DNA of 64,000 bases from an uncultured Alphaproteobacteria bacterium. GTDB lineage: Bacteria; Pseudomonadota; Alphaproteobacteria; Rhizobiales; Beijerinckiaceae. A program made the position numbers and the translations under genes. A model generated the notes under the pieces. The model saw only the letters and a list, made by a program, of their open reading frames with translations. It had not been told where the DNA came from and ran no database searches. Shown here in pieces: positions 2,561-35,806 of the stretch. Within the stretch, counting starts at the first letter, position 1. Each line of letters opens with the position of its first letter. The stretch is from NCBI GenBank assembly GCA_963828185.1, contig CAWHDV010000008.1, forward strand, positions 126,029-190,028, in the 5' to 3' direction.

Positions 2561-3137
2561 GCGCACGCCCCGTGGTGACTCCCTGCAAAGGGTATATTGC
2601 GTGTGAATAACCGGAATCAATACGCTTGCTGGCTTGGGCGGGCAGGTCGTCCGCGCCCCGCTGATTTCGTATGGAAATTTCGCGCCGTCGCGCCGGCCGA
2701 AAAAAAGGGAGAAAGTGAAACGATTTCTTTACCATTGCGAGCAAATGCGATTATAACAACTTATGCGTGTATAAAATTCCGAATCAACAGGTTAATGATG
2801 GCTGTCGGCGACAATCTCGAGAAGATGCGGCTCAAGTGGATCAACCTTCAATTCGCGCGGGCCGACCTGAGATACGAGCAGACGCGACTTCTCAAAGCAT
2901 GCCCGATGCGATCCACTTGCGCTGCGCTGAGCGCGGCGCCGGCAGGCGATGATCTACGAAGCTTTTTTCCCTGCGTTGGCTGTAATGTCCGGCCACAGGC
3001 CATGGCTTTACAATAAACGATACGTTTTCTTGCTTGCCGCCGGCTCGAATCGGACACTTTTCCAAGTGTTCGCGGAACCGGCGGCGCGCCCGCAAAATCG
3101 ATGTTCTTAAGCCCAGCGCCCCAAAGTCATTGCCACA

Positions 3138-27815: not shown

Positions 27816-29798
27816 TTAAAACAGCGTCAATCCCAGCACGAGCACGAGCAGGAAGCCGATCAGGCCGATGTAAAAGTTCAAGCTTCCCGACTGGAGCAAT
27901 CGAAGTTTGCCGGAAACGGCGCGCACGGCGCGCACCGAGGGCTCGAACAGGTGGGGACCAAAAATCGGCGCCACGTCGTGTTCGAAACTGAGTTTCTTCA
28001 CGAAATAGCCGCCGGCGTCGGCATCCCGCTCGGTGATCGCCGTCGGGCGATAGACGAAACTGTAGAATGTGCGCATGGCGTTCGAGAAAGTCAGGGCGGT
28101 CGTCGCGGCCCGCGCCGGATCGTGCGAGAGCCCGCCGTACCAGACCCGGGATCGACGGACGGGATAGCGTCGACTGGCCAGGATGAGCCCCACCGGCACG
28201 AGCGCCAGAAGCGGCATGACGACGACAAGCAGCGTCGGCGAAATGAACGCGAAATGCGCGGTGAGGGGAACGAGAAGCGGACCGTCGTGCATCAGGCGTG
28301 ATACGGAAGCGCCAAAATGGTTCGCCGTCGCCACATCGAGCGCGTCCAGCCAGATCGGCATGCCCGCCCCGAGGGCAAGGACCGAAAGTCCCAGCAAGCC
28401 GACGGTCAACGCGTAGGGGCGCGAGATCGGCGCGGCGCGACTGGCGTCTCGCCCGAGAGCGCCAATGCCGAACAGCTTCACGAAAGTGGCGAATGCGATG
28501 GCCGCGGTAAGAGCCAGTCCGGCGCCGGTGAGCGCCAGCACGAGACGGCCGGCGAGGTCGGGCAGATGAAAACCCTGGAAGACCGTCTGGAACATGAACC
28601 ATTCGCTGACGAAGCCGGCGACCGGCGGCATGGCCGCGAGACTCATGGCGCTGAACAGGGCGCCGACGCCGAACAGCCAATTGCGTCCCGCCCCGCTCGT
28701 CGTGATCGCATAGGTTCCCGACGAGCGATACAATCCGTCCGCCGCCAGGAACAACGAACCCTTCGCCAGCGCATGGCCGGCGAGATGCAGCAGCGCGACG
28801 GTCCAGGCAAGCCCGGCGAGATCGGCCATGCGATAGTGGCGAAAGAGCATCGCGGCGCCGAGGGCGACGACAGCGATCGACGCGTTTTCCGCGGAAGAAA
28901 AGCTCAGGAGCCGGCGCCAGTCATCCTGCTGGAACGCATAGAGGATGGTCAGGATAGCGCTGATCGTTCCAACCACGATGACAATGATGGAAAGCAACGG
29001 GAACGAATGATCGGGCGCCGCGGGCAGCCATTCGACCAATCCGCGCGATAGCCCGAAGAACGCCGCATTCAATACGACCCCGGAAAGGATCGCGCCCGTC
29101 GCGCCGCTGCCGGAGCCGTAAGCGCCCGGAAACCACTCGTAAAACGGCGCCAACCCGAGCTTCGCGCCGAAGCCGGCCAGCAAGAGAAGGCCGACGCCAA
29201 GCCGCATTGCCGGCGTCAAACCCGACGCGCCCTTGACGAAGCCCGCGAAGCCGAGCGAATTGGCTCCAAGGCTTAAAATTGCGACGGCAAGGACAAGGGC
29301 GACAGCGCCGACTTCCAGCAGCGCAAGCATGAACAGGATCGTCCGTCCGGGCGACGGCTCCATCCGCTCCGACAAGATCATCACGGCGCCGCCGAGACCT
29401 ATCGCCTCCCAGGCGACAAGCAATGCGGCTCCGTTTTGCAGCCCGAACACGCCGAGCGCGCCGAGCAGGCTGAAGGCCGCGCCGAAAAACCAGCCGCCTC
29501 GGCCGCGCTCCGACGGACTAGCAAACGCACACGCGAACACGGCCGGCGTCAAACCGAACCCGAGCAGCCACAGGGCCTCCGGCGCCAGATGGAAGGCCAC
29601 GGCTTCCCCCGCGAGCCGGACCGGCAGCCGAACCGGGTCGGCCGCATTCGGAAGCGCGAGACTGGCGGCGGCAACGCCAGCGACGGCGCCGATGGCCAGC
29701 AGAACGCCGCTGAGCCTAGCCCAACGCTTCGACAGCGCAGCGACGGCCGCTCCTGCCCACAGCACGAAGGATGCCAGAAGGAGCCAGTCAGCCGCCAA
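27816..29798 (-). CDS. Proton-conducting membrane subunit, HyfB/NuoL-like (Ehr complex)
   Basis: AWEAIGL, GFGAKLGLAPFYEWFP.AY, LLSFSSAEN, HALAKGSLFL, LAAMPPVAGFVSEW; TTG start with GGAGG SD, overlapping the upstream gene. Confidence 0.9.
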   Translation of the reverse strand: MAADWLLLASFVLWAGAAVAALSKRWARLSGVLLAIGAVAGVAAASLALPNAADPVRLPVRLAGEAVAFHLAPEALWLLGFGLTPAVFACAFASPSERGRGGWFFGAAFSLLGALGVFGLQNGAALLVAWEAIGLGGAVMILSERMEPSPGRTILFMLALLEVGAVALVLAVAILSLGANSLGFAGFVKGASGLTPAMRLGVGLLLLAGFGAKLGLAPFYEWFPGAYGSGSGATGAILSGVVLNAAFFGLSRGLVEWLPAAPDHSFPLLSIIVIVVGTISAILTILYAFQQDDWRRLLSFSSAENASIAVVALGAAMLFRHYRMADLAGLAWTVALLHLAGHALAKGSLFLAADGLYRSSGTYAITTSGAGRNWLFGVGALFSAMSLAAMPPVAGFVSEWFMFQTVFQGFHLPDLAGRLVLALTGAGLALTAAIAFATFVKLFGIGALGRDASRAAPISRPYALTVGLLGLSVLALGAGMPIWLDALDVATANHFGASVSRLMHDGPLLVPLTAHFAFISPTLLVVVMPLLALVPVGLILASRRYPVRRSRVWYGGLSHDPARAATTALTFSNAMRTFYSFVYRPTAITERDADAGGYFVKKLSFEHDVAPIFGPHLFEPSVRAVRAVSGKLRLLQSGSLNFYIGLIGFLLVLVLGLTLF

Positions 29799-30586
29799 CG
29801 CGACCTCCCCTGACCCGTTGAGGCGCGCGATCGAGAAACATCAGCAGCGCCTCGATGATCGCCGCAGGATTCGGAGGGCATCCTGGCAAATAGAGATCGA
29901 CCGGAAGCACGCCTTCAAGTCCTGTGCCGCAAGCATAATTCCCGCCGGCGATTCCTCCCGACACCGCGCAGGTCCCTACCGCCATGACCCATCGCGGTTC
30001 CGGCATGGCCTCATAGGTCGCCCGGAGCGGCTCGAGCATTGGCCGCGTGACCGGCCCCGTCACCAGCAACAAATCGGCGAAGCGCGGCGAAGGCGTGAAA
30101 AAGACGCCGAAGCGGTGCAGGTTGTAGAAGGGATTGTCCAGGCCTTGCAACTCGGATTCGCAGCCATTGCACGAGCCGGCGTCAACGTGGCGAACATGCA
30201 GGCTGCGGCGGAACGCTTGACGGTCTTGGCGCTCTTGCTTGCCCGCGGCCTGCGGCGCCTTGGCGTCCGCAGCCCACACGAGGTCATCGCGGCTGCGGAC
30301 GCCGAACGCCCAATCGCCGGACGGCGCCATGGCCCCGGTCGGACAGGCCTCGGTGCAAAGCTGGCAGACGACGCAACGTCCATAATCCAGCGCGATCTTG
30401 CCGTCGCGCGCTTCGATTGCATGGGTGGGGCAGGCGGCGGCGCAGTCGTCGCAACCTTGCTGGCACGCCTCGGGATTGAATTCGAGGCATGCCGAGAAAC
30501 CCGGCCTGCCCGTCGTCGCCCTTCGCAGCGGGCCAGGCCGTGGTGGCCTTGCCGCTCGCCAGTCCAAACAAGGTCCAAAGCGCCAT
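29788..30586 (-). CDS. Small subunit, NuoB/HyfI-like, fused to an N-terminal 2x[4Fe-4S] ferredoxin; +1 frameshift at about 30481
   Basis: The true N-terminus MALWTLFG (ORF 30284..30586, SD GAGG) joins CQQGCDDCAAACP / CVVCQLCTEACP and GSCNGCE..SPRFAD..GTC..GCPPNP. Confidence 0.88.
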
Positions 30587-30596
30587 CCTCGTCCCC

Positions 30597-32063
30597 CTAA
30601 CGGTCGCAGCCTGCCACGGTCAGCCCGAAGCTCGCCTCGTTGATTGCGTAATCCATCATGTTCGAGTCATGCACGGTGAAGGGAAAGGCGCGCCAGTTCG
30701 AGAACGAGGGAGACTTGATTTTTACTCGCGCCAGTTTGCCGTCCGTACCGACATGAATAGCGTAGAAGACCGATCCGCGCGGTCCCTCGGCCCATCCCAA
30801 TCCTTCGGACAAGGCGGGCGCATCACAGGGCGAGCGCACCTCTCCCGGCTCAAGCAGGAGGAGGACGCGCTGGCAGAGAACAAAGGCCGCTTCGACTTCC
30901 GCGATGCGAATTCGCGCGCGGGCGTATGCGTCGCCTTCGCCAAGCGTCATCACCGTCAAGGGAAGCTCGGCGTAATGCGCATAGGGATGGTCGCGGCGCA
31001 GATCGCGATCGAGGCCGGAAGCGCGCTCCACCGGCCCTGTCGCGCCCTGGTCGAAAGCGATGTGCTGGCGAAGCCGCCCCGTCGTGATCAGGCGGTCGAG
31101 ATGGCTTTCCGATGCTTCCAGGCGACCAACATAGGACACGAATTCGCCCCGCAACGCCTCCAGCGCCTCTCCCAGCCATTGGCCAGGCGCCAGGTCGCGG
31201 CGCAAGCCGCCTGGCGTGAGAAGGCTGCGCAGGAAGCGACTGCCGGTCAACCGCGCGTTCAGTTGCTTGGCCTTTTCCTCAAGCAGCTTTCCCTGCGCCT
31301 CGCCGACTTTGAGCGTCGTGGTGTGGCAGAGATGGCCGAAATAATGCAGATGGTTGTAAAGACGTTCAAGCTCCGCGAGCAGAACGCGAAGAGCGCGGGC
31401 GCGAACGGGTATTTCGCATTCCGCCGCGCTTTCCACCGCCTGGCAATAGGCCAAAGCATGCGCGACGGAGCCGACGCCGGAGACGCGTTCCGCCACCACG
31501 ACCGCAGGACCCGGCGAACAGCCTTCAAACCGCGTCTCCATCCCTCGGTGTTTGAAGAAAAGCCGCGGCTGATAGTGGATGATGTGCTCGCCGACATAAA
31601 AGAACACAAATTCCGCGGATTCGAAAACGTCTCCCCTTACCGGCCCGAACGGGAGTTGCTGCACGTCCTTTGCGTCGAGGGCTGGAAGGTGCTGCCGGCC
31701 GTTCAACGGCTTACGTTCAACCAGCTCCTCCCCGTTGACCTGCGACGCAGCGCCCTCGCGAAGCACCAGCCGGTAAGGCTCGGGATGATCGGTGAATTGC
31801 ACACCGTGGAGATCCATCATTTCGCGTTCGTACCAGGACAGGAGCGGCCATATTTGCGCGAGACTCGGGACCGTGGCCGCCGATGGCAGGATCCAGATTT
31901 CGAAACCTTGCCGGCCGGGCAACGCGACGACATAGCGGATTTCGATTTCGCCATCTTGCGACCACGCATAGGCGAACTGCATGCGACCGCCCGCATCGCG
32001 CAGCGCCTGCGCGTGCGCGGCGAGCGCGTCTGTGGTGATCGCTTTGATCCGCGCGCCTTTCAT
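30597..32063 (-). CDS. Large subunit, NuoC/D-HyfG-like, lacking both [NiFe]-binding CxxC motifs (EhrL type)
   Basis: ERVSGVGSVAH in place of RxCGxC; C-terminus SFGLTVAGCDR in place of DPCxxC; EGPRG and KSPSFSNW retained. Start MKGARIK at 32063. Confidence 0.9.
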   Translation of the reverse strand: MKGARIKAITTDALAAHAQALRDAGGRMQFAYAWSQDGEIEIRYVVALPGRQGFEIWILPSAATVPSLAQIWPLLSWYEREMMDLHGVQFTDHPEPYRLVLREGAASQVNGEELVERKPLNGRQHLPALDAKDVQQLPFGPVRGDVFESAEFVFFYVGEHIIHYQPRLFFKHRGMETRFEGCSPGPAVVVAERVSGVGSVAHALAYCQAVESAAECEIPVRARALRVLLAELERLYNHLHYFGHLCHTTTLKVGEAQGKLLEEKAKQLNARLTGSRFLRSLLTPGGLRRDLAPGQWLGEALEALRGEFVSYVGRLEASESHLDRLITTGRLRQHIAFDQGATGPVERASGLDRDLRRDHPYAHYAELPLTVMTLGEGDAYARARIRIAEVEAAFVLCQRVLLLLEPGEVRSPCDAPALSEGLGWAEGPRGSVFYAIHVGTDGKLARVKIKSPSFSNWRAFPFTVHDSNMMDYAINEASFGLTVAGCDR

Positions 32064-32070
32064 CGCTTGC

Positions 32071-33541
32071 TCACATTGGGTTGCCGGGCGTGAGGGCTTG
32101 GGCGATGGTGACGAAATGGTCCCACAATTGCTGCGGCCACCACAGACCCAGGAAAAAAAGCGGCAATATCGCCAGCCACATGGGCGCGAGGCGCCAGGCG
32201 TCGATCGGGGGCGGCGCCTTGCGTCTCGCGCCGCCGCTCTCGAAATACATCTGCCGGAAGTGATTGAGGAATCCGACAAATATCACGACGAGAAGGACGG
32301 CGATCAGCGCGACCAGCGGCCAATGCGATTGCGTGAGACCAGCGCGCATGATCGTTAACTCGCTTTGGAACAGCCCGAAGGGGGCGCCCGGTAATGGCGA
32401 CGGCTCCGGCGAGCCAGAGCCCGCCGAGAACCGGCAGCCTCTCGCCGACGAGGTGAATGCCGTGAATGCGCTTGGCGCCATAGGCGCGCATCACGCTGCC
32501 CGCTCCGAAGAACATCGCCGACTTGTTGAGGGAATGATTCAGCATGTGGTAAAGCGCGCCCGCGACGCCGAGCGAGCCGCCGAGTCCGAAGCCGATGGCG
32601 ATCATTCCCATGTGCTCCACGCTCGAATAGGCCATCAACCGCTTGATCCCGGTCTGGCGAACGATGAAGAGCGCGGCCACGAACAGCGAGACGGCGCCCA
32701 ATGTGATGACGGCGCCACGCGCCAGCGCCGCAATTCCCACGGCGTCGGCGATGGCGAGGTAACGCACGATCCCGACCATGGCCGTGTTGAGCAGCGCGCC
32801 CGACAGCAAGGCCGACACAGGCGCGGGACCTTCGCTATGGGCGTCGGGCAGCCATGTATGCATGGGGGCGAGGCCGGCTTTCGTGCCGTAGCCGATGAGC
32901 ACAAGCAAAAATGCAAGCGAGACCAGGGCGGGATTGAGGCGCGGCGCGACCTGGCGCAGCACATCCCAGGTCATGTCGTAGGTCGGGCCGAGGACGAATG
33001 TCCCGCTCCAATAGAACAGGACCGTGCCCAGCAGCGCCAGGCTGATCCCCGCCGAGACGATGATGATGTATTTCCAGGCGGCTTCGATGCTGGCCGCCTC
33101 GTGCTCGAATGCGACGAGGAAAGTGCTGATGAGGGTCGTCAGCTCGATCGCGATCCAGTAAAGCCCGGCGTTGTTCATCAACGGGGCGATCAACGTGCTC
33201 AGAGCAAATCCCGCGAACATCGCGTAAAAGCGATTGAGGCGTTGGGGTTTGTCGAGGAGGCGCATGTAGCCGACGGCATAGATCGACGCCAGGAAGTAGA
33301 CGATCGCCGCACAAAAAATCGACCAGGCGCCGAGCCCGTCGATGACGATGTAGCCATCCAGGAATGTGGTCGGCCCGCATGGCGCGATCAGCAGAATGGC
33401 GCAGATCGAGGCCAGCGAGACGGCGCTCGCTGACAGGTTGAGCAGTTCCGCGGCGCGCGGCCCTCTCGTGACCGCGATAAGGAAGATTGCGACCGCGGGC
33501 GCCAGGGTCATCGTTGCAACGAGTGGTCCGACCGCGCCCAT
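32071..33541 (-). CDS. Proton-conducting membrane subunit, HyfF/NuoM-like; frameshift at about 32385
   Basis: WIAIELTTL, EAAWKY, GYGTKAGLAPMHTWLPDAHSE, MAYSSVEHMG. AITG-APPFGLFQSE is restored by two extra bases in the G/C runs at 32380-32389. Confidence 0.88.
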
Positions 33542-34221
33542 CAGCCCACCAGACGCTTGAGGTGGAGGGAGCTGGTCGTGCCGACGTGGGTCAAAAGGTA
33601 CTGAACCAGGACGCCAAAGCACGCCACGACGATGAGAAGATCGAAGAGGATGACGATCTCGATCAGAAGCGGCATGCCCGGCACGAGGATTTGCGCGCCG
33701 AGGAAAACGCCGTTCTCCAAGACGAGCAGGCCGAGAATTTGACTGACCGCCTCATGGCGAACCGAAAGCATCAAAAAGCCGATGAGTTTCATCGACAACA
33801 TCACGGTTAGCGCGAGGACCGCGACCGTTCCGGCGAGACCCAACGCTTCGCCGATACGATAGGAGACGGCCAGCGCAAAGATCACGGCAAAGGCGCCGAC
33901 GACGAGGCTCGAACTCGCCTGCAAGATGACATGCGCTTCGCGGCTGACCTCGAGGCGGCGGATGATCCTGAGGATCAGATAGGGCAGCAGCAGTCCGCGG
34001 AATGCGGCAGTGAGAATGGCGACAATGTAGAGTTCGGCATAGTTTCCATAGAACCCGACGGCGGCCGATAATGCAGCGATCAGCCACGACTGGGCTGCGA
34101 AGGCGAACATGTAATGGCGCAATGAATGCGACCCGAGCATCACGAAGGCGAGCAGCAGGCTGCCAATCGCCAACAGGCTGAACAGCGAAGCAGGAAGAGG
34201 AGCGAGGTGCGCTGCAAGCAT
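33541..34221 (-). CDS. HyfE-like membrane subunit (C-terminal NuoK-like region)
   Basis: Hydrophobic; SQILGLLVLENGVFL and EIVILFDLL motifs; position between hyfC- and hyfF-like genes. Confidence 0.85.
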   Translation of the reverse strand: MLAAHLAPLPASLFSLLAIGSLLLAFVMLGSHSLRHYMFAFAAQSWLIAALSAAVGFYGNYAELYIVAILTAAFRGLLLPYLILRIIRRLEVSREAHVILQASSSLVVGAFAVIFALAVSYRIGEALGLAGTVAVLALTVMLSMKLIGFLMLSVRHEAVSQILGLLVLENGVFLGAQILVPGMPLLIEIVILFDLLIVVACFGVLVQYLLTHVGTTSSLHLKRLVG

Positions 34222-34225
34222 GGGG

Positions 34226-35173
34226 TCAACTCAGCTGCGTGCCGACGATGGCGAGGATTGCGAGAAGAAACGACGCGGCAAGCGGCTCCTGGTAACGGTA
34301 AAATCGAAGGCGCGACTGGACGGTCTCGACAAAGACCACGACGCAGCCGACGACAAGAAATTTGGCGAGAAGTGCGGCGATCGATCCGACGACGCCGAGC
34401 GCCGTTCCCTCGGTGGACAAGGCCCAGGGAAAGAGCAGCACATTCGAGAAAATCGTGTAGAGGATGAACTGCTTCATCATCGAGGCCCACTTCAGGATGG
34501 CGAGCATCGGACCGGAATATTCGAGGATGCGCGCCTCGTCGATCATGTAGATTTCGATATGCGTGCTGGAATGGATCGGCAGCCGGTCGGTCTCGACAAG
34601 CAGCAGGACGAAGAAGGCGGCGACCAGGAACAAGTGCGTCGGCCCCCAGTAGATCGAGGGCTGCGCCACCAGCAGGTGATTGACGACAAAAGGGAGCATC
34701 GCCTTCGCCAGCAACGTGATTCCGACGAAGACCAAAATCAGCGTGGGCTCGGCGAGAATGGTGACCATGACGGCCCGGCTCGAGCCGATGCCGCCATAGG
34801 CGCTACGGGTGTCGAGACCGGCGAGCGTGAACATGAACGAGCCGAGCGTGAGTATCAGGCCGCCGCCAAGGATATCGCCCATGTCGGACAGCGGCAGCGG
34901 ATAGTTCGTCAGGACGGGAATGAGAATTGGAACCGTCAAGGTCGTGGTGAACGCGACGATCGGCGCCACCCAATACAACCACGACGCGGTGTCGGGAAAG
35001 ACGATCTGCTTGTGGAACAGCTTCCAGAGGTCGCGATAGGGTTGGAGGACGCCCGGCCCCTGGCCTCTCTGCGCCCGTTCTTCAAACTGGAGGATGACGC
35101 CCTGCAGGAGAGGAGCGAACAGCAGCGTCGCGAGAACCTGTGCTATCTGCAGAAGAACGTCCCGAACGGTCAT
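34226..35173 (-). CDS. HyfC/HycD/NuoH-like membrane subunit
   Basis: GPGVLQPYRDLWKLFHK, GGIGSSRAVM, ETDRLP, LEYSGP, ETVQSRLRF. Confidence 0.9.
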   Translation of the reverse strand: MTVRDVLLQIAQVLATLLFAPLLQGVILQFEERAQRGQGPGVLQPYRDLWKLFHKQIVFPDTASWLYWVAPIVAFTTTLTVPILIPVLTNYPLPLSDMGDILGGGLILTLGSFMFTLAGLDTRSAYGGIGSSRAVMVTILAEPTLILVFVGITLLAKAMLPFVVNHLLVAQPSIYWGPTHLFLVAAFFVLLLVETDRLPIHSSTHIEIYMIDEARILEYSGPMLAILKWASMMKQFILYTIFSNVLLFPWALSTEGTALGVVGSIAALLAKFLVVGCVVVFVETVQSRLRFYRYQEPLAASFLLAILAIVGTQLS

Positions 35174-35250
35174 TGGACAGTTCTCGGCAAGCCGCGCCAA
35201 ATGGCTGCGAACTGCGAACGATCAGGGACAAGGGGAAATCGCTCTTTCAA
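35170..35250 (-). CDS. Putative 26-aa leader ORF between the riboswitch and the hyfC-like gene
   Basis: SD GGGAG (35263-35259), 8 nt, TTG 35250; MKERFPLVPDRSQFAAIWRGLPRTVQ; its TGA overlaps the hyfC-like ATG (ATGA). Confidence 0.45.
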   Translation of the reverse strand: MKERFPLVPDRSQFAAIWRGLPRTVQ

Positions 35251-35281
35251 GGCGCACACTCCCATCTGCCAAAATTGGCTC

Positions 35282-35333
35282 GACAGGAGTCATCAGCCCT
35301 GGGGGCGGTTAGATGGCGAACTCCATCACCACG
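35282..35333 (-). ncRNA. Fluoride riboswitch (crcB motif) aptamer
   Basis: GGUGA-U-GGAGU-UCGCC-AUCUAACC-GCCC-CCA-GGGC-UGAUG-ACUCC-UGUC. P1 GGUGA/UCGCC, pseudoknot GGAGU/ACUCC, P2 GCCC/GGGC and the conserved URAUG are all present. Confidence 0.92.
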
Positions 35334-35339
35334 GCGCTT

Positions 35340-35368
35340 AGGCTGCGCGCGGCGCCATGACTTGTCAA
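35340..35368 (-). promoter_or_regulatory. sigma70-type promoter driving the riboswitch-Ehr transcript
   Basis: Perfect TTGACA (35368-35363), 17 nt, CAGCCT (nAnnnT-type -10), placing +1 a few nt before the aptamer. Confidence 0.7.
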
Positions 35369-35577
35369 GAGGCGTCGCCGTCCAGTTCGGATCGATCTTT
35401 GCTGACAATCTGATGCCCCTGCCAAGCCGACGGTCTATCCAACATTCAGGGGCGACCCATCGTTCCATGGTTCTCGTTGGCGCATTCGGCTTCAGCTTCC
35501 AGGCGCGAACGCTTCCGACTGACGAGCAGACGATCATGACGAGAAACCGAGGTCTGTTCAGGCGCGGGACTCGGCCT

Positions 35578-35640
35578 GCGCCGCCATGAGCGCGGGCGAT
35601 TTCCGAGGCGATATAAAGCCCCAGCCCCGATCCCTGTTTG
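35578..35640 (-). pseudogene. Histidine kinase ATPase-domain remnant
   Basis: Encodes KQGSGLGLYIASEIARAHGG (G2 box) with no kinase-like sequence on either side. Confidence 0.65.
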
Positions 35641-35806
35641 CTTGGACTGTTACGCTCAATTTTAGCGGCGCCCGACGCGTCCGTCCTTCGCGCCATGTGT
35701 CAGGGCGTTCGCGACCAGATTGGAAAGCAACCGCGTCACGTTGCTCCATGTGCACGGACGCGAATGGGAGCTTTGCAATCCGCATATCGCGGACAAAGAC
35801 ATCCGC

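Follow-up and report, generated by a model that had tools for sequence, protein, structure and literature searches.

In most descriptions, the expression platform of a riboswitch acts directly on the regulated gene. The B12 riboswitch of Mycobacterium tuberculosis ppe2 masks the Shine-Dalgarno (SD) sequence and start region of a short upstream open reading frame (uORF), uPPE2, whose stop codon overlaps the ppe2 start codon as AUGA; ppe2 itself has no obvious SD sequence, and PPE2 expression needs translation of uPPE2, mainly via termination-reinitiation (Kipkorir et al., NAR 2024, PMC11260477). Here we analyse a stretch of 64,000 nucleotides (the window) from an uncultured alphaproteobacterium of the Beijerinckiaceae (contig CAWHDV010000008.1, positions 126,029 to 190,028), in which a fluoride riboswitch precedes an operon whose first gene encodes a HyfC-like membrane subunit (hyfC hereafter). 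It seems likely that this riboswitch is a translational ON switch whose direct target would be a short leader open reading frame (ORF), from which the response would be relayed to hyfC; what we infer is the response itself, that the leader is translated and that hyfC depends on this translation.

The predicted architecture is the same as that of ppe2 and uPPE2, with a different class of aptamer, the opposite sign and much broader comparative support. In both systems the SD sequence under the control of the switch belongs to a short uORF, and the uORF and the main gene overlap as AUGA. In the window hyfC, like ppe2, has no obvious SD sequence, but 48 of 75 relatives do have one. The two differ in ligand class and in sign, the B12 switch being an OFF switch whereas an ON response is expected for fluoride, and in the masking strand, since the anti-SD strand is here the pseudoknot strand of the aptamer itself. 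Furthermore, the ppe2 relay has been tested, whereas the present one is predicted from the sequence and from its conservation in at least 76 loci of alpha-, beta- and gammaproteobacteria with a peptide that drifts.

Canonical fluoride riboswitches (RF01734), which act through terminator or direct SD-sequestering platforms, have the same aptamer, and in them too ligand binding takes the 3′ pseudoknot strand out of a helix that represses expression; what differs is that the start codon controlled here opens a 26-codon relay ORF and not the regulated gene. A short uORF that is controlled by a regulator and coupled to the downstream gene is also reported for CsrA and the iraD leader ORF of Escherichia coli (PMC5574718). 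Regulation there likewise falls on initiation at the short uORF and reaches the main gene by translational coupling, the regulator being a protein, whereas here it would be a ligand-binding RNA. In trp-type operons and in mgtL of mgtA, the choice between alternative RNA folds depends on how the ribosome moves over particular codons, or on a stalling peptide that is conserved. Expression of the operon is determined in these systems, as would be the case in ours, by a short translated ORF in the 5′ leader; in contrast to them, neither codons nor peptide are conserved in the locus studied here, and there is no terminator/antiterminator pair. Among open-access papers and preprints we found none in which a fluoride riboswitch is connected with a leader ORF, a leader peptide or a uORF.

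Results

The fluoride aptamer and the SD-sequestering hairpin

Coordinates are those of the window, and the following elements make up the riboswitch.

35339-35277, minus strand: fluoride riboswitch aptamer (crcB motif), Rfam RF01734
35330-35327 paired with 35318-35315, minus strand: aptamer helix P1
35306-35303 paired with 35299-35296, minus strand: aptamer helix P2
35324-35320 (GGAGU, P1 loop) paired with 35290-35286 (ACUCC, 3′ strand), minus strand: aptamer pseudoknot, fully complementary
35290-35258, minus strand: SD-sequestering (OFF-state) hairpin, from the minimum free energy (MFE) fold and covariation
35263-35259, minus strand: SD sequence GGGAG (SD1), in the 3′ arm of the hairpin within GAUGGGAGU, with an 8-nt spacer to TTG 35250

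The match to RF01734 is full length (model positions 1-64), scores 50.8 bits where the gathering score is 34 (E = 3.8e-11) and is the sole Rfam match within the 64-kb window. In the covariance-model alignment of relatives described below, P1 is 99.1% and P2 96.0% paired, with compensatory changes in both. As judged by these features the element is a genuine fluoride aptamer, and it would be expected to bind fluoride. No intrinsic terminator was found after the aptamer, and an expression platform of that type was ruled out on this ground.

For comparison, one genome per species was scanned, giving 507 stretches that encode a HyfC-like relative; the best 80 were fetched and, with the window, constitute the 81 loci considered here. 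They cover Alphaproteobacteria (Nitrobacter, Roseiarcus, Ancylobacter, Bosea, Enterovirga, Acetobacteraceae, Stellaceae and others), Betaproteobacteria (Candidimonas) and Gammaproteobacteria (Steroidobacteraceae). A fluoride riboswitch was observed directly upstream of hyfC in all 81 of the 81 loci, 62 of them by motif search and the other 19 by Rfam, and in the relatives (L001-L080) it lies approximately 100-220 nt upstream of the hyfC match.

The original prediction held that the 3′ pseudoknot strand and its tail can instead form a helix of nine out of nine pairs, two of them G-U, closing an inner GCCA/UGGC hairpin and burying an SD sequence GGGAG that lies 8 nt before a TTG codon. Each of these statements is exact. 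The outer helix pairs ACUCCUGUC (35290-35282) with GAUGGGAGU (35266-35258) at 9/9 positions, the G-U pairs being 35285-35263 and 35284-35264, and the inner helix, GCCA 35279-35276 with UGGC 35271-35268, lies within it and has a 4-nt loop. This hairpin is the MFE fold in both 51-nt and 181-nt contexts (-18.9 kcal/mol, z = -3.3, with 1 of 200 shuffles as good), and the SD1 that it contains has a pairing energy of -7.7 kcal/mol with the anti-SD tail of 16S rRNA. Because ACUCC is at once the pseudoknot strand and the anti-SD strand, the two folds are mutually exclusive.

Relatives with an ACUCC-type pseudoknot, folded singly, form the hairpin in 73 of 73 distinct sequences, and in each of them the helix joins ACUCC and 3-6 further bases to the SD region and encloses a small inner hairpin. 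This extension of the 5′ arm varies among relatives (UGUC, UCCU, UUUC, UCCG, UUCU and others) and its partner changes along with it: the duplex energy is -12.79 kcal/mol with the own 3′ arm as against -11.18 +/- 0.21 kcal/mol with a swapped one, and none of 5000 permutations reaches the own value. Ten in-register sequences served to build a covariance model, with which 110 matches in the loci were re-aligned; the compensatory changes extend over 108 distinct sequences. In this alignment, which was fitted to the structure and whose sequences share ancestry, pairing in the outer helix amounts to 89.7%, and 6 of its 10 pairs have changed on both sides (e.g. GC 42, CG 24, AU 9, UA 9), and the inner helix is 95.1% paired with 4/4 pairs changed on both sides. 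The observed values are reached by 0 of 500 shuffles, and slid registers are only 41-55% paired. RNAalifold recovered no structure from MAFFT alignments of the platform, because the 3′ arms are out of register in them. Overall, the comparison indicates that the sequestering helix is kept by compensatory changes. When ACUCC is locked unpaired, the predicted accessibility of the SD1 start region rises in 61 of 76 loci, from a mean of 0.34 to 0.44.

The leader ORF

Downstream of the hairpin the following features lead into the operon.

35250-35170, minus strand: leader ORF with TTG start, 26 codons (MKERFPLVPDRSQFAAIWRGLPRTVQ) and TGA stop, from ORF translation
35250-35248, minus strand: leader start codon TTG
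35238-35224, minus strand: C-rich stretch UUUCCCCUUGUCCCU inside the leader, picked out by pyrimidine pentamer enrichment in relatives
35173-35170, minus strand: ATGA overlap of the leader TGA (35172-35170) with the hyfC-like ATG (35173-35171)
35173-34226, minus strand: hyfC-like gene, 315 aa, NuoH/HyfC family membrane subunit and gene 1 of the operon (Pfam PF00146, 1.3e-32)

The 26-codon ORF with a TGA overlapping the hyfC ATG, likewise part of the original prediction, is found as described. Within a single window such an ORF is unremarkable, about a third of comparable frames being stop-free in G+C-rich DNA, and its significance derives from the comparative data. Two in-frame codons, ATG 35265 and GTG 35259, were rejected as alternative starts of the leader; both are situated within the SD sequence or right beside it, have no SD sequence upstream and are missing in most relatives.

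A leader is present in 76 of the 81 loci. Its start codon (TTG in 38, GTG in 24 and ATG in 14) lies 27-37 nt after the aptamer, beside SD1, and in these 76 leader-bearing loci a spacer of 32-124 nt separates the SD1-proximal start from the hyfC start. In 69 of the 76 the leader stop overlaps the hyfC start as NTGA (ATGA, GTGA or TTGA); elsewhere it takes the form TGATG (three loci) or lies 3 nt (two loci), 13 nt (the two Candidimonas loci) or 33 nt (one locus) upstream. The loci in which position +4 of hyfC is not A are the very ones whose leader stop has moved, to TGATG or to a place 3 or 13 nt upstream. The start-to-start distance is 2 mod 3 in 71/76 loci over 16 different lengths between 32 and 110 nt, with modes at 77 nt (26 codons, n = 27), 92 nt (n = 11) and 74 nt (n = 11), and the leader frame is stop-free in 74/76 loci as compared with 28/76 and 26/76 for the other two frames. 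On the HyfC protein tree, leader length changes many times while staying in frame. A check of leader length and overlap in related genomes had been suggested together with the original prediction, and these counts come out in its favour.

The peptide itself behaves differently from the hyfC product. In 27 leaders of equal length the column entropy at codon positions 1/2/3 is 1.68/1.75/1.68 bits, against 0.66/0.43/1.29 bits in the next 18 hyfC codons, and codon changes among close pairs are 27 synonymous and 171 non-synonymous in the leader as compared with 69 and 45 in hyfC. Neither conserved interior sequence nor a consensus structure was found in the 27 equal-length leaders, and leaders show no extra stability overall relative to shuffles (mean z = -0.33). 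The data thus suggest that the leader is conserved as a frame with its peptide unconstrained, and that it is the act of translation that counts. Of the relay through a leader peptide as it was first proposed, the frame, the SD1-adjacent start and the overlap hold in three proteobacterial classes; the sequence of the peptide drifts freely.

One recurrent element was observed inside the leaders. Pyrimidine pentamers, in an element that often reads YCCCCAA, are enriched at leader positions +12 to +23, where 38 of 75 loci have one and the background is 0.20 per window; the C-rich run is not frame-locked in the leaders of relatives. As a second partner for SD1 this motif was rejected (2.5 expected base pairs as against 2.62 with a shuffled leader, p = 0.44). 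A rut-like bias of C over G was also rejected as a family feature, since the composition of the leaders (C 0.329, G 0.291) is about that of the hyfC coding sequence (0.325, 0.286).

The hyfC start and the proposed ribosome hand-over

The 120 best homologues of the hyfC product are nearly all 315 aa long and align from residue 1, with identity of up to 92%, which marks ATG 35173 as the true hyfC start on comparative grounds. TTG 35200, the start of the 324-aa product in the ORF listing, was ruled out because the homologues have 315 aa. The 15 nt before ATG 35173 reach only -3.0 kcal/mol against the 16S tail, the 34th percentile of the coding background, as compared with -7.7 for SD1. There is no second SD sequence (SD2) in the window, and hyfC should therefore depend on ribosomes arriving from the leader.

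The claim that hyfC has no strong SD sequence accordingly stands for the window; it fails for the family, since an SD2 of -6 kcal/mol or stronger precedes hyfC in 48 of 75 relatives, as against 4% of background windows. Across the family, the hyfC start region is also less unpaired than the rest of the leader (0.32 vs 0.44), and a local hairpin of the CUUCCC...GGGAGG type is common, whereas in the window the start region is about as open as the remaining leader (0.40 vs 0.45). Coupling thus probably draws both on reinitiation at the overlap and on unmasking of the start region, in a balance that would depend on the lineage.

Public sequencing runs that hold the window are of soil and wetland DNA only. 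Contigs of sludge metatranscriptomes, approximately 88-92% identical, cover a Nitrobacter relative (L042:2726-3470) and extend without a break from a point upstream of the riboswitch across the leader and into hyfC. They show neither a transcript start nor translation, and are consistent with a single transcript, DNA carry-over being possible.

Leaderless and variant loci

Four loci (L001, L002, L027 and L039) have no leader. They form one clade that adjoins the clade of the window and is nested among leader-bearing clades, from which it would follow that the leader is ancestral and was lost once; an exact deletion from the TGA of the leader TTGA to the TGA of ATGA would account for the loss. 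In these loci the SD1-proximal TTG or ATG, 34 nt downstream of the aptamer (~2995-3003), serves as the hyfC start codon, as in TTG ACC GTG CGG GAT, encoding MTVRD. Since the leaderless hyfC starts at the controlled codon itself, the target of the riboswitch and SD1 would be translation into hyfC.

Other departures were seen at individual loci. In L026 (~2920-3004) a TTG 34 nt after the aptamer is in frame with hyfC (340 aa) and an overlapping GTG leader of 27 codons is also present, and in L028 (~2900-3060) the hyfC start is frameshifted; these could be errors of metagenome-assembled genomes or real variants. Four beta- and gammaproteobacterial loci (L047, L067, L071 and L080) carry a variant aptamer with a GGCAU/AUGCC pseudoknot; they also hide an SD sequence in a hairpin, for which no link to the pseudoknot strand was established. 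In the Candidimonas pair (L047, L080) the leader is 34-36 codons long and an SD sequence lies in the 13 nt between its stop and hyfC, and in the Steroidobacteraceae pair (L067, L071) leaders of 11 and 29 codons overlap the hyfC start as GTGA.

Around the operon in relatives there are 29 further fluoride-riboswitch matches, many of them divergently transcribed (examples are L022:2678-2752(-), L045:2614-2682(-), L009:2634-2705(-), L052:6347-6418(+) and L012:241-312(-)). Most stand immediately before long ORFs, where the same hairpin is seen, and some have a terminator-type platform. Among the fluoride riboswitches of these loci, the relay appears to be particular to the hyf-like operon.

Putative promoter and operon

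The remaining features of the transcription unit are listed below, the gene assignments being from Pfam/NCBIfam.

35368-35363, minus strand: putative -35 hexamer TTGACA of the operon promoter, read from the sequence and a lead only
35345-35339, minus strand: putative -10 region, CAGCCTA box, inferred, 17-18 nt after the -35 hexamer
33541-34221, minus strand: HyfE-like
32060-33622, minus strand: HyfF-like
30597-32279, minus strand: NuoC/NuoD-like large subunit
29788-30567, minus strand: NuoI+NuoB-like (ferredoxin-NuoB fusion)
27816-29798, minus strand: HyfB-like

Of the 81 loci, 52 share a TTGAC-type box at 35-38 nt before P1, and a CAGCCT-like box then recurs at the same spacing. The TTGACA and CAGCCT-like boxes probably represent the operon promoter, and their conserved positions would place the transcript start a few nt before P1; a consensus promoter scan did not call them. 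The riboswitch region is also entered by an ORF at 35247-35696 on the minus strand, which contains GSGLGLYIASEIARAHGG and has no Pfam match; by eye, this looks like the ATP-binding end of a histidine kinase, and it may be what is left of a gene.

The operon consists of six genes, including hyfC, on one strand over 7.4 kb. All six proteins score under the NCBIfam equivalog cut-offs. When the large subunit is aligned with E. coli HycE (7z0s_E), DRVCGICGFAH aligns to ERVSGVGSVAH, the N-terminal NiFe cysteines are absent, and the C-terminus (...LTVAGCDR) holds one Cys, so that the NiFe cysteine pairs of a Group 4 [NiFe]-hydrogenase or formate hydrogenlyase (Hyf/Hyc) are lacking. Because of the missing cysteines and the scores below cut-off, ‘hyfC-like’ is used as a homology label only; the complex is, by these features, hydrogenase-related (Ehr-like), without a NiFe site and not a hydrogenase. 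The original description of the crcB motif already remarked on its link with ‘formate hydrogen lyase’ genes (Weinberg et al. 2010, PMC2864571). With a riboswitch at 81/81 loci, the operon looks like a dedicated fluoride-response module.

Discussion

We propose the following mechanism for the window. Without fluoride, ACUCC and the next four bases would pair with GAUGGGAGU, so that SD1 is buried and ribosomes do not load. With fluoride bound, ACUCC would be held in the pseudoknot, SD1 and TTG 35250 would be exposed and the 26-codon leader translated, and ribosomes at the UGA that overlaps the hyfC AUG (AUGA) would restart there, hyfC having no SD sequence of its own in the window. In relatives with an SD2, often within a local hairpin, the arriving ribosome would probably open that hairpin too.

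Several observations weigh against this mechanism. In equilibrium folding, locking the pseudoknot opens SD1 no more than modestly; actual switching probably depends on co-transcriptional kinetics, the aptamer being able to bind fluoride some 30 nt before the SD sequence emerges. Four loci manage without a leader, which is therefore dispensable. The SD2 of 48 relatives means that pure reinitiation is not a family-wide rule, and the related loci share ancestry, so that the counts overstate the number of independent events. Finally, we found neither ribosome profiling (Ribo-seq) nor strain RNA sequencing data for this RNA or its relatives.

Could the leader be something other than a translated relay? 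That it is a chance open frame in G+C-rich DNA, with SD1 and its TTG unused or serving for standby only and hyfC initiating alone, agrees with the unremarkable 26-codon frame in the window and with the 26-28 of 76 alternative frames that are also stop-free. It is nevertheless highly improbable, given an open frame kept over at least 16 lengths, stop-free in 74/76 loci and overlapping hyfC in 69/76, with a stop shifted to an adjacent place where position +4 of hyfC is not A, and given the want of an SD2 in the window. Hardly more credible is a leader that encodes a functional micropeptide or an attenuation-type stalling peptide. Leader length is fairly constant (modes of 26, 25 and 31 codons) and proline is frequent at codons 6-8, as such a peptide might lead one to expect; against it stand the lack of codon periodicity and the excess of non-synonymous over synonymous changes (171 vs 27), the near absence of conserved mid-leader columns in the 27 equal-length leaders, the C-run that is not frame-locked and the lack of any Pfam match for the leader, while a stalling peptide would in addition have no alternative terminator/antiterminator pair on which to act. 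Leader-peptide transcription attenuation was rejected for the same kind of reason, as there is no terminator and no conserved peptide or codons.

Two further explanations accept that the leader is translated and differ in what its translation achieves. In one, leader translation mainly melts a hairpin over the hyfC SD sequence and start, new 30S subunits initiate there, and the overlap just ensures that the ribosome travels far enough. The strong SD2 of 48/75 relatives (4% in background windows), the more paired start region of the family (0.32 vs 0.44 unpaired) and the CUUCCC...GGGAGG hairpin at many loci all favour it. In place of reinitiation we nevertheless consider it unlikely, if well short of negligible, since the window has no SD2 (-3.0 kcal/mol) and a start region as open as its leader (0.40 vs 0.45), the NTGA overlap is kept in 69/76 loci including those with a strong SD2, and no consensus structure was found across leaders. 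In the other, the leader would serve mainly to bring ribosomes onto the 5′ end of the messenger RNA, where they block Rho termination and so convert the translational decision into transcriptional control of the 7.4-kb operon. Untranslated leaders expose messenger RNA to Rho, many leaders have the C-rich stretch at +12 to +23, and some (e.g. L012, L024 and L044) are strongly C-rich and G-poor; yet leader composition in the family equals that of the hyfC coding sequence (C 0.329 and G 0.291 vs 0.325 and 0.286), and the four leaderless loci would get equal protection from the translation of hyfC itself. This second explanation is compatible with coupling and is possible, although we lean towards doubting it. 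A more specific version, which we put forward tentatively and regard as slightly less probable, is that the leader would be more than a passive relay: fluoride-dependent loading of ribosomes on the first ~80 nt would give Rho-dependent, operon-wide transcriptional control, in which the C-rich element at +12 to +23 and the length of ~25-31 codons play a part as a rut-like or pause site.

The reading that we prefer, a fluoride-controlled leader ORF whose translation is relayed to hyfC, has several consequences if true. For annotation, the true regulated start codon would lie some 77-78 nt upstream of the annotated gene, at the head of a leader that is unrecognisable by sequence similarity. The family would also offer a natural system for distinguishing termination-reinitiation from unmasking, with close relatives that do and do not have an SD2, and that do and do not have a leader. 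A small and well-studied riboswitch, that for fluoride, would work through a translated relay ORF, as the B12 switch of ppe2 does, and the relay design would be ancient and widespread, being present in 76 of the 81 loci examined (the best 80 of 507 relatives and the window) in three proteobacterial classes. Furthermore, the case would single out, as a module dedicated to the fluoride response, a complex that is related to hydrogenases but lacks a NiFe site.

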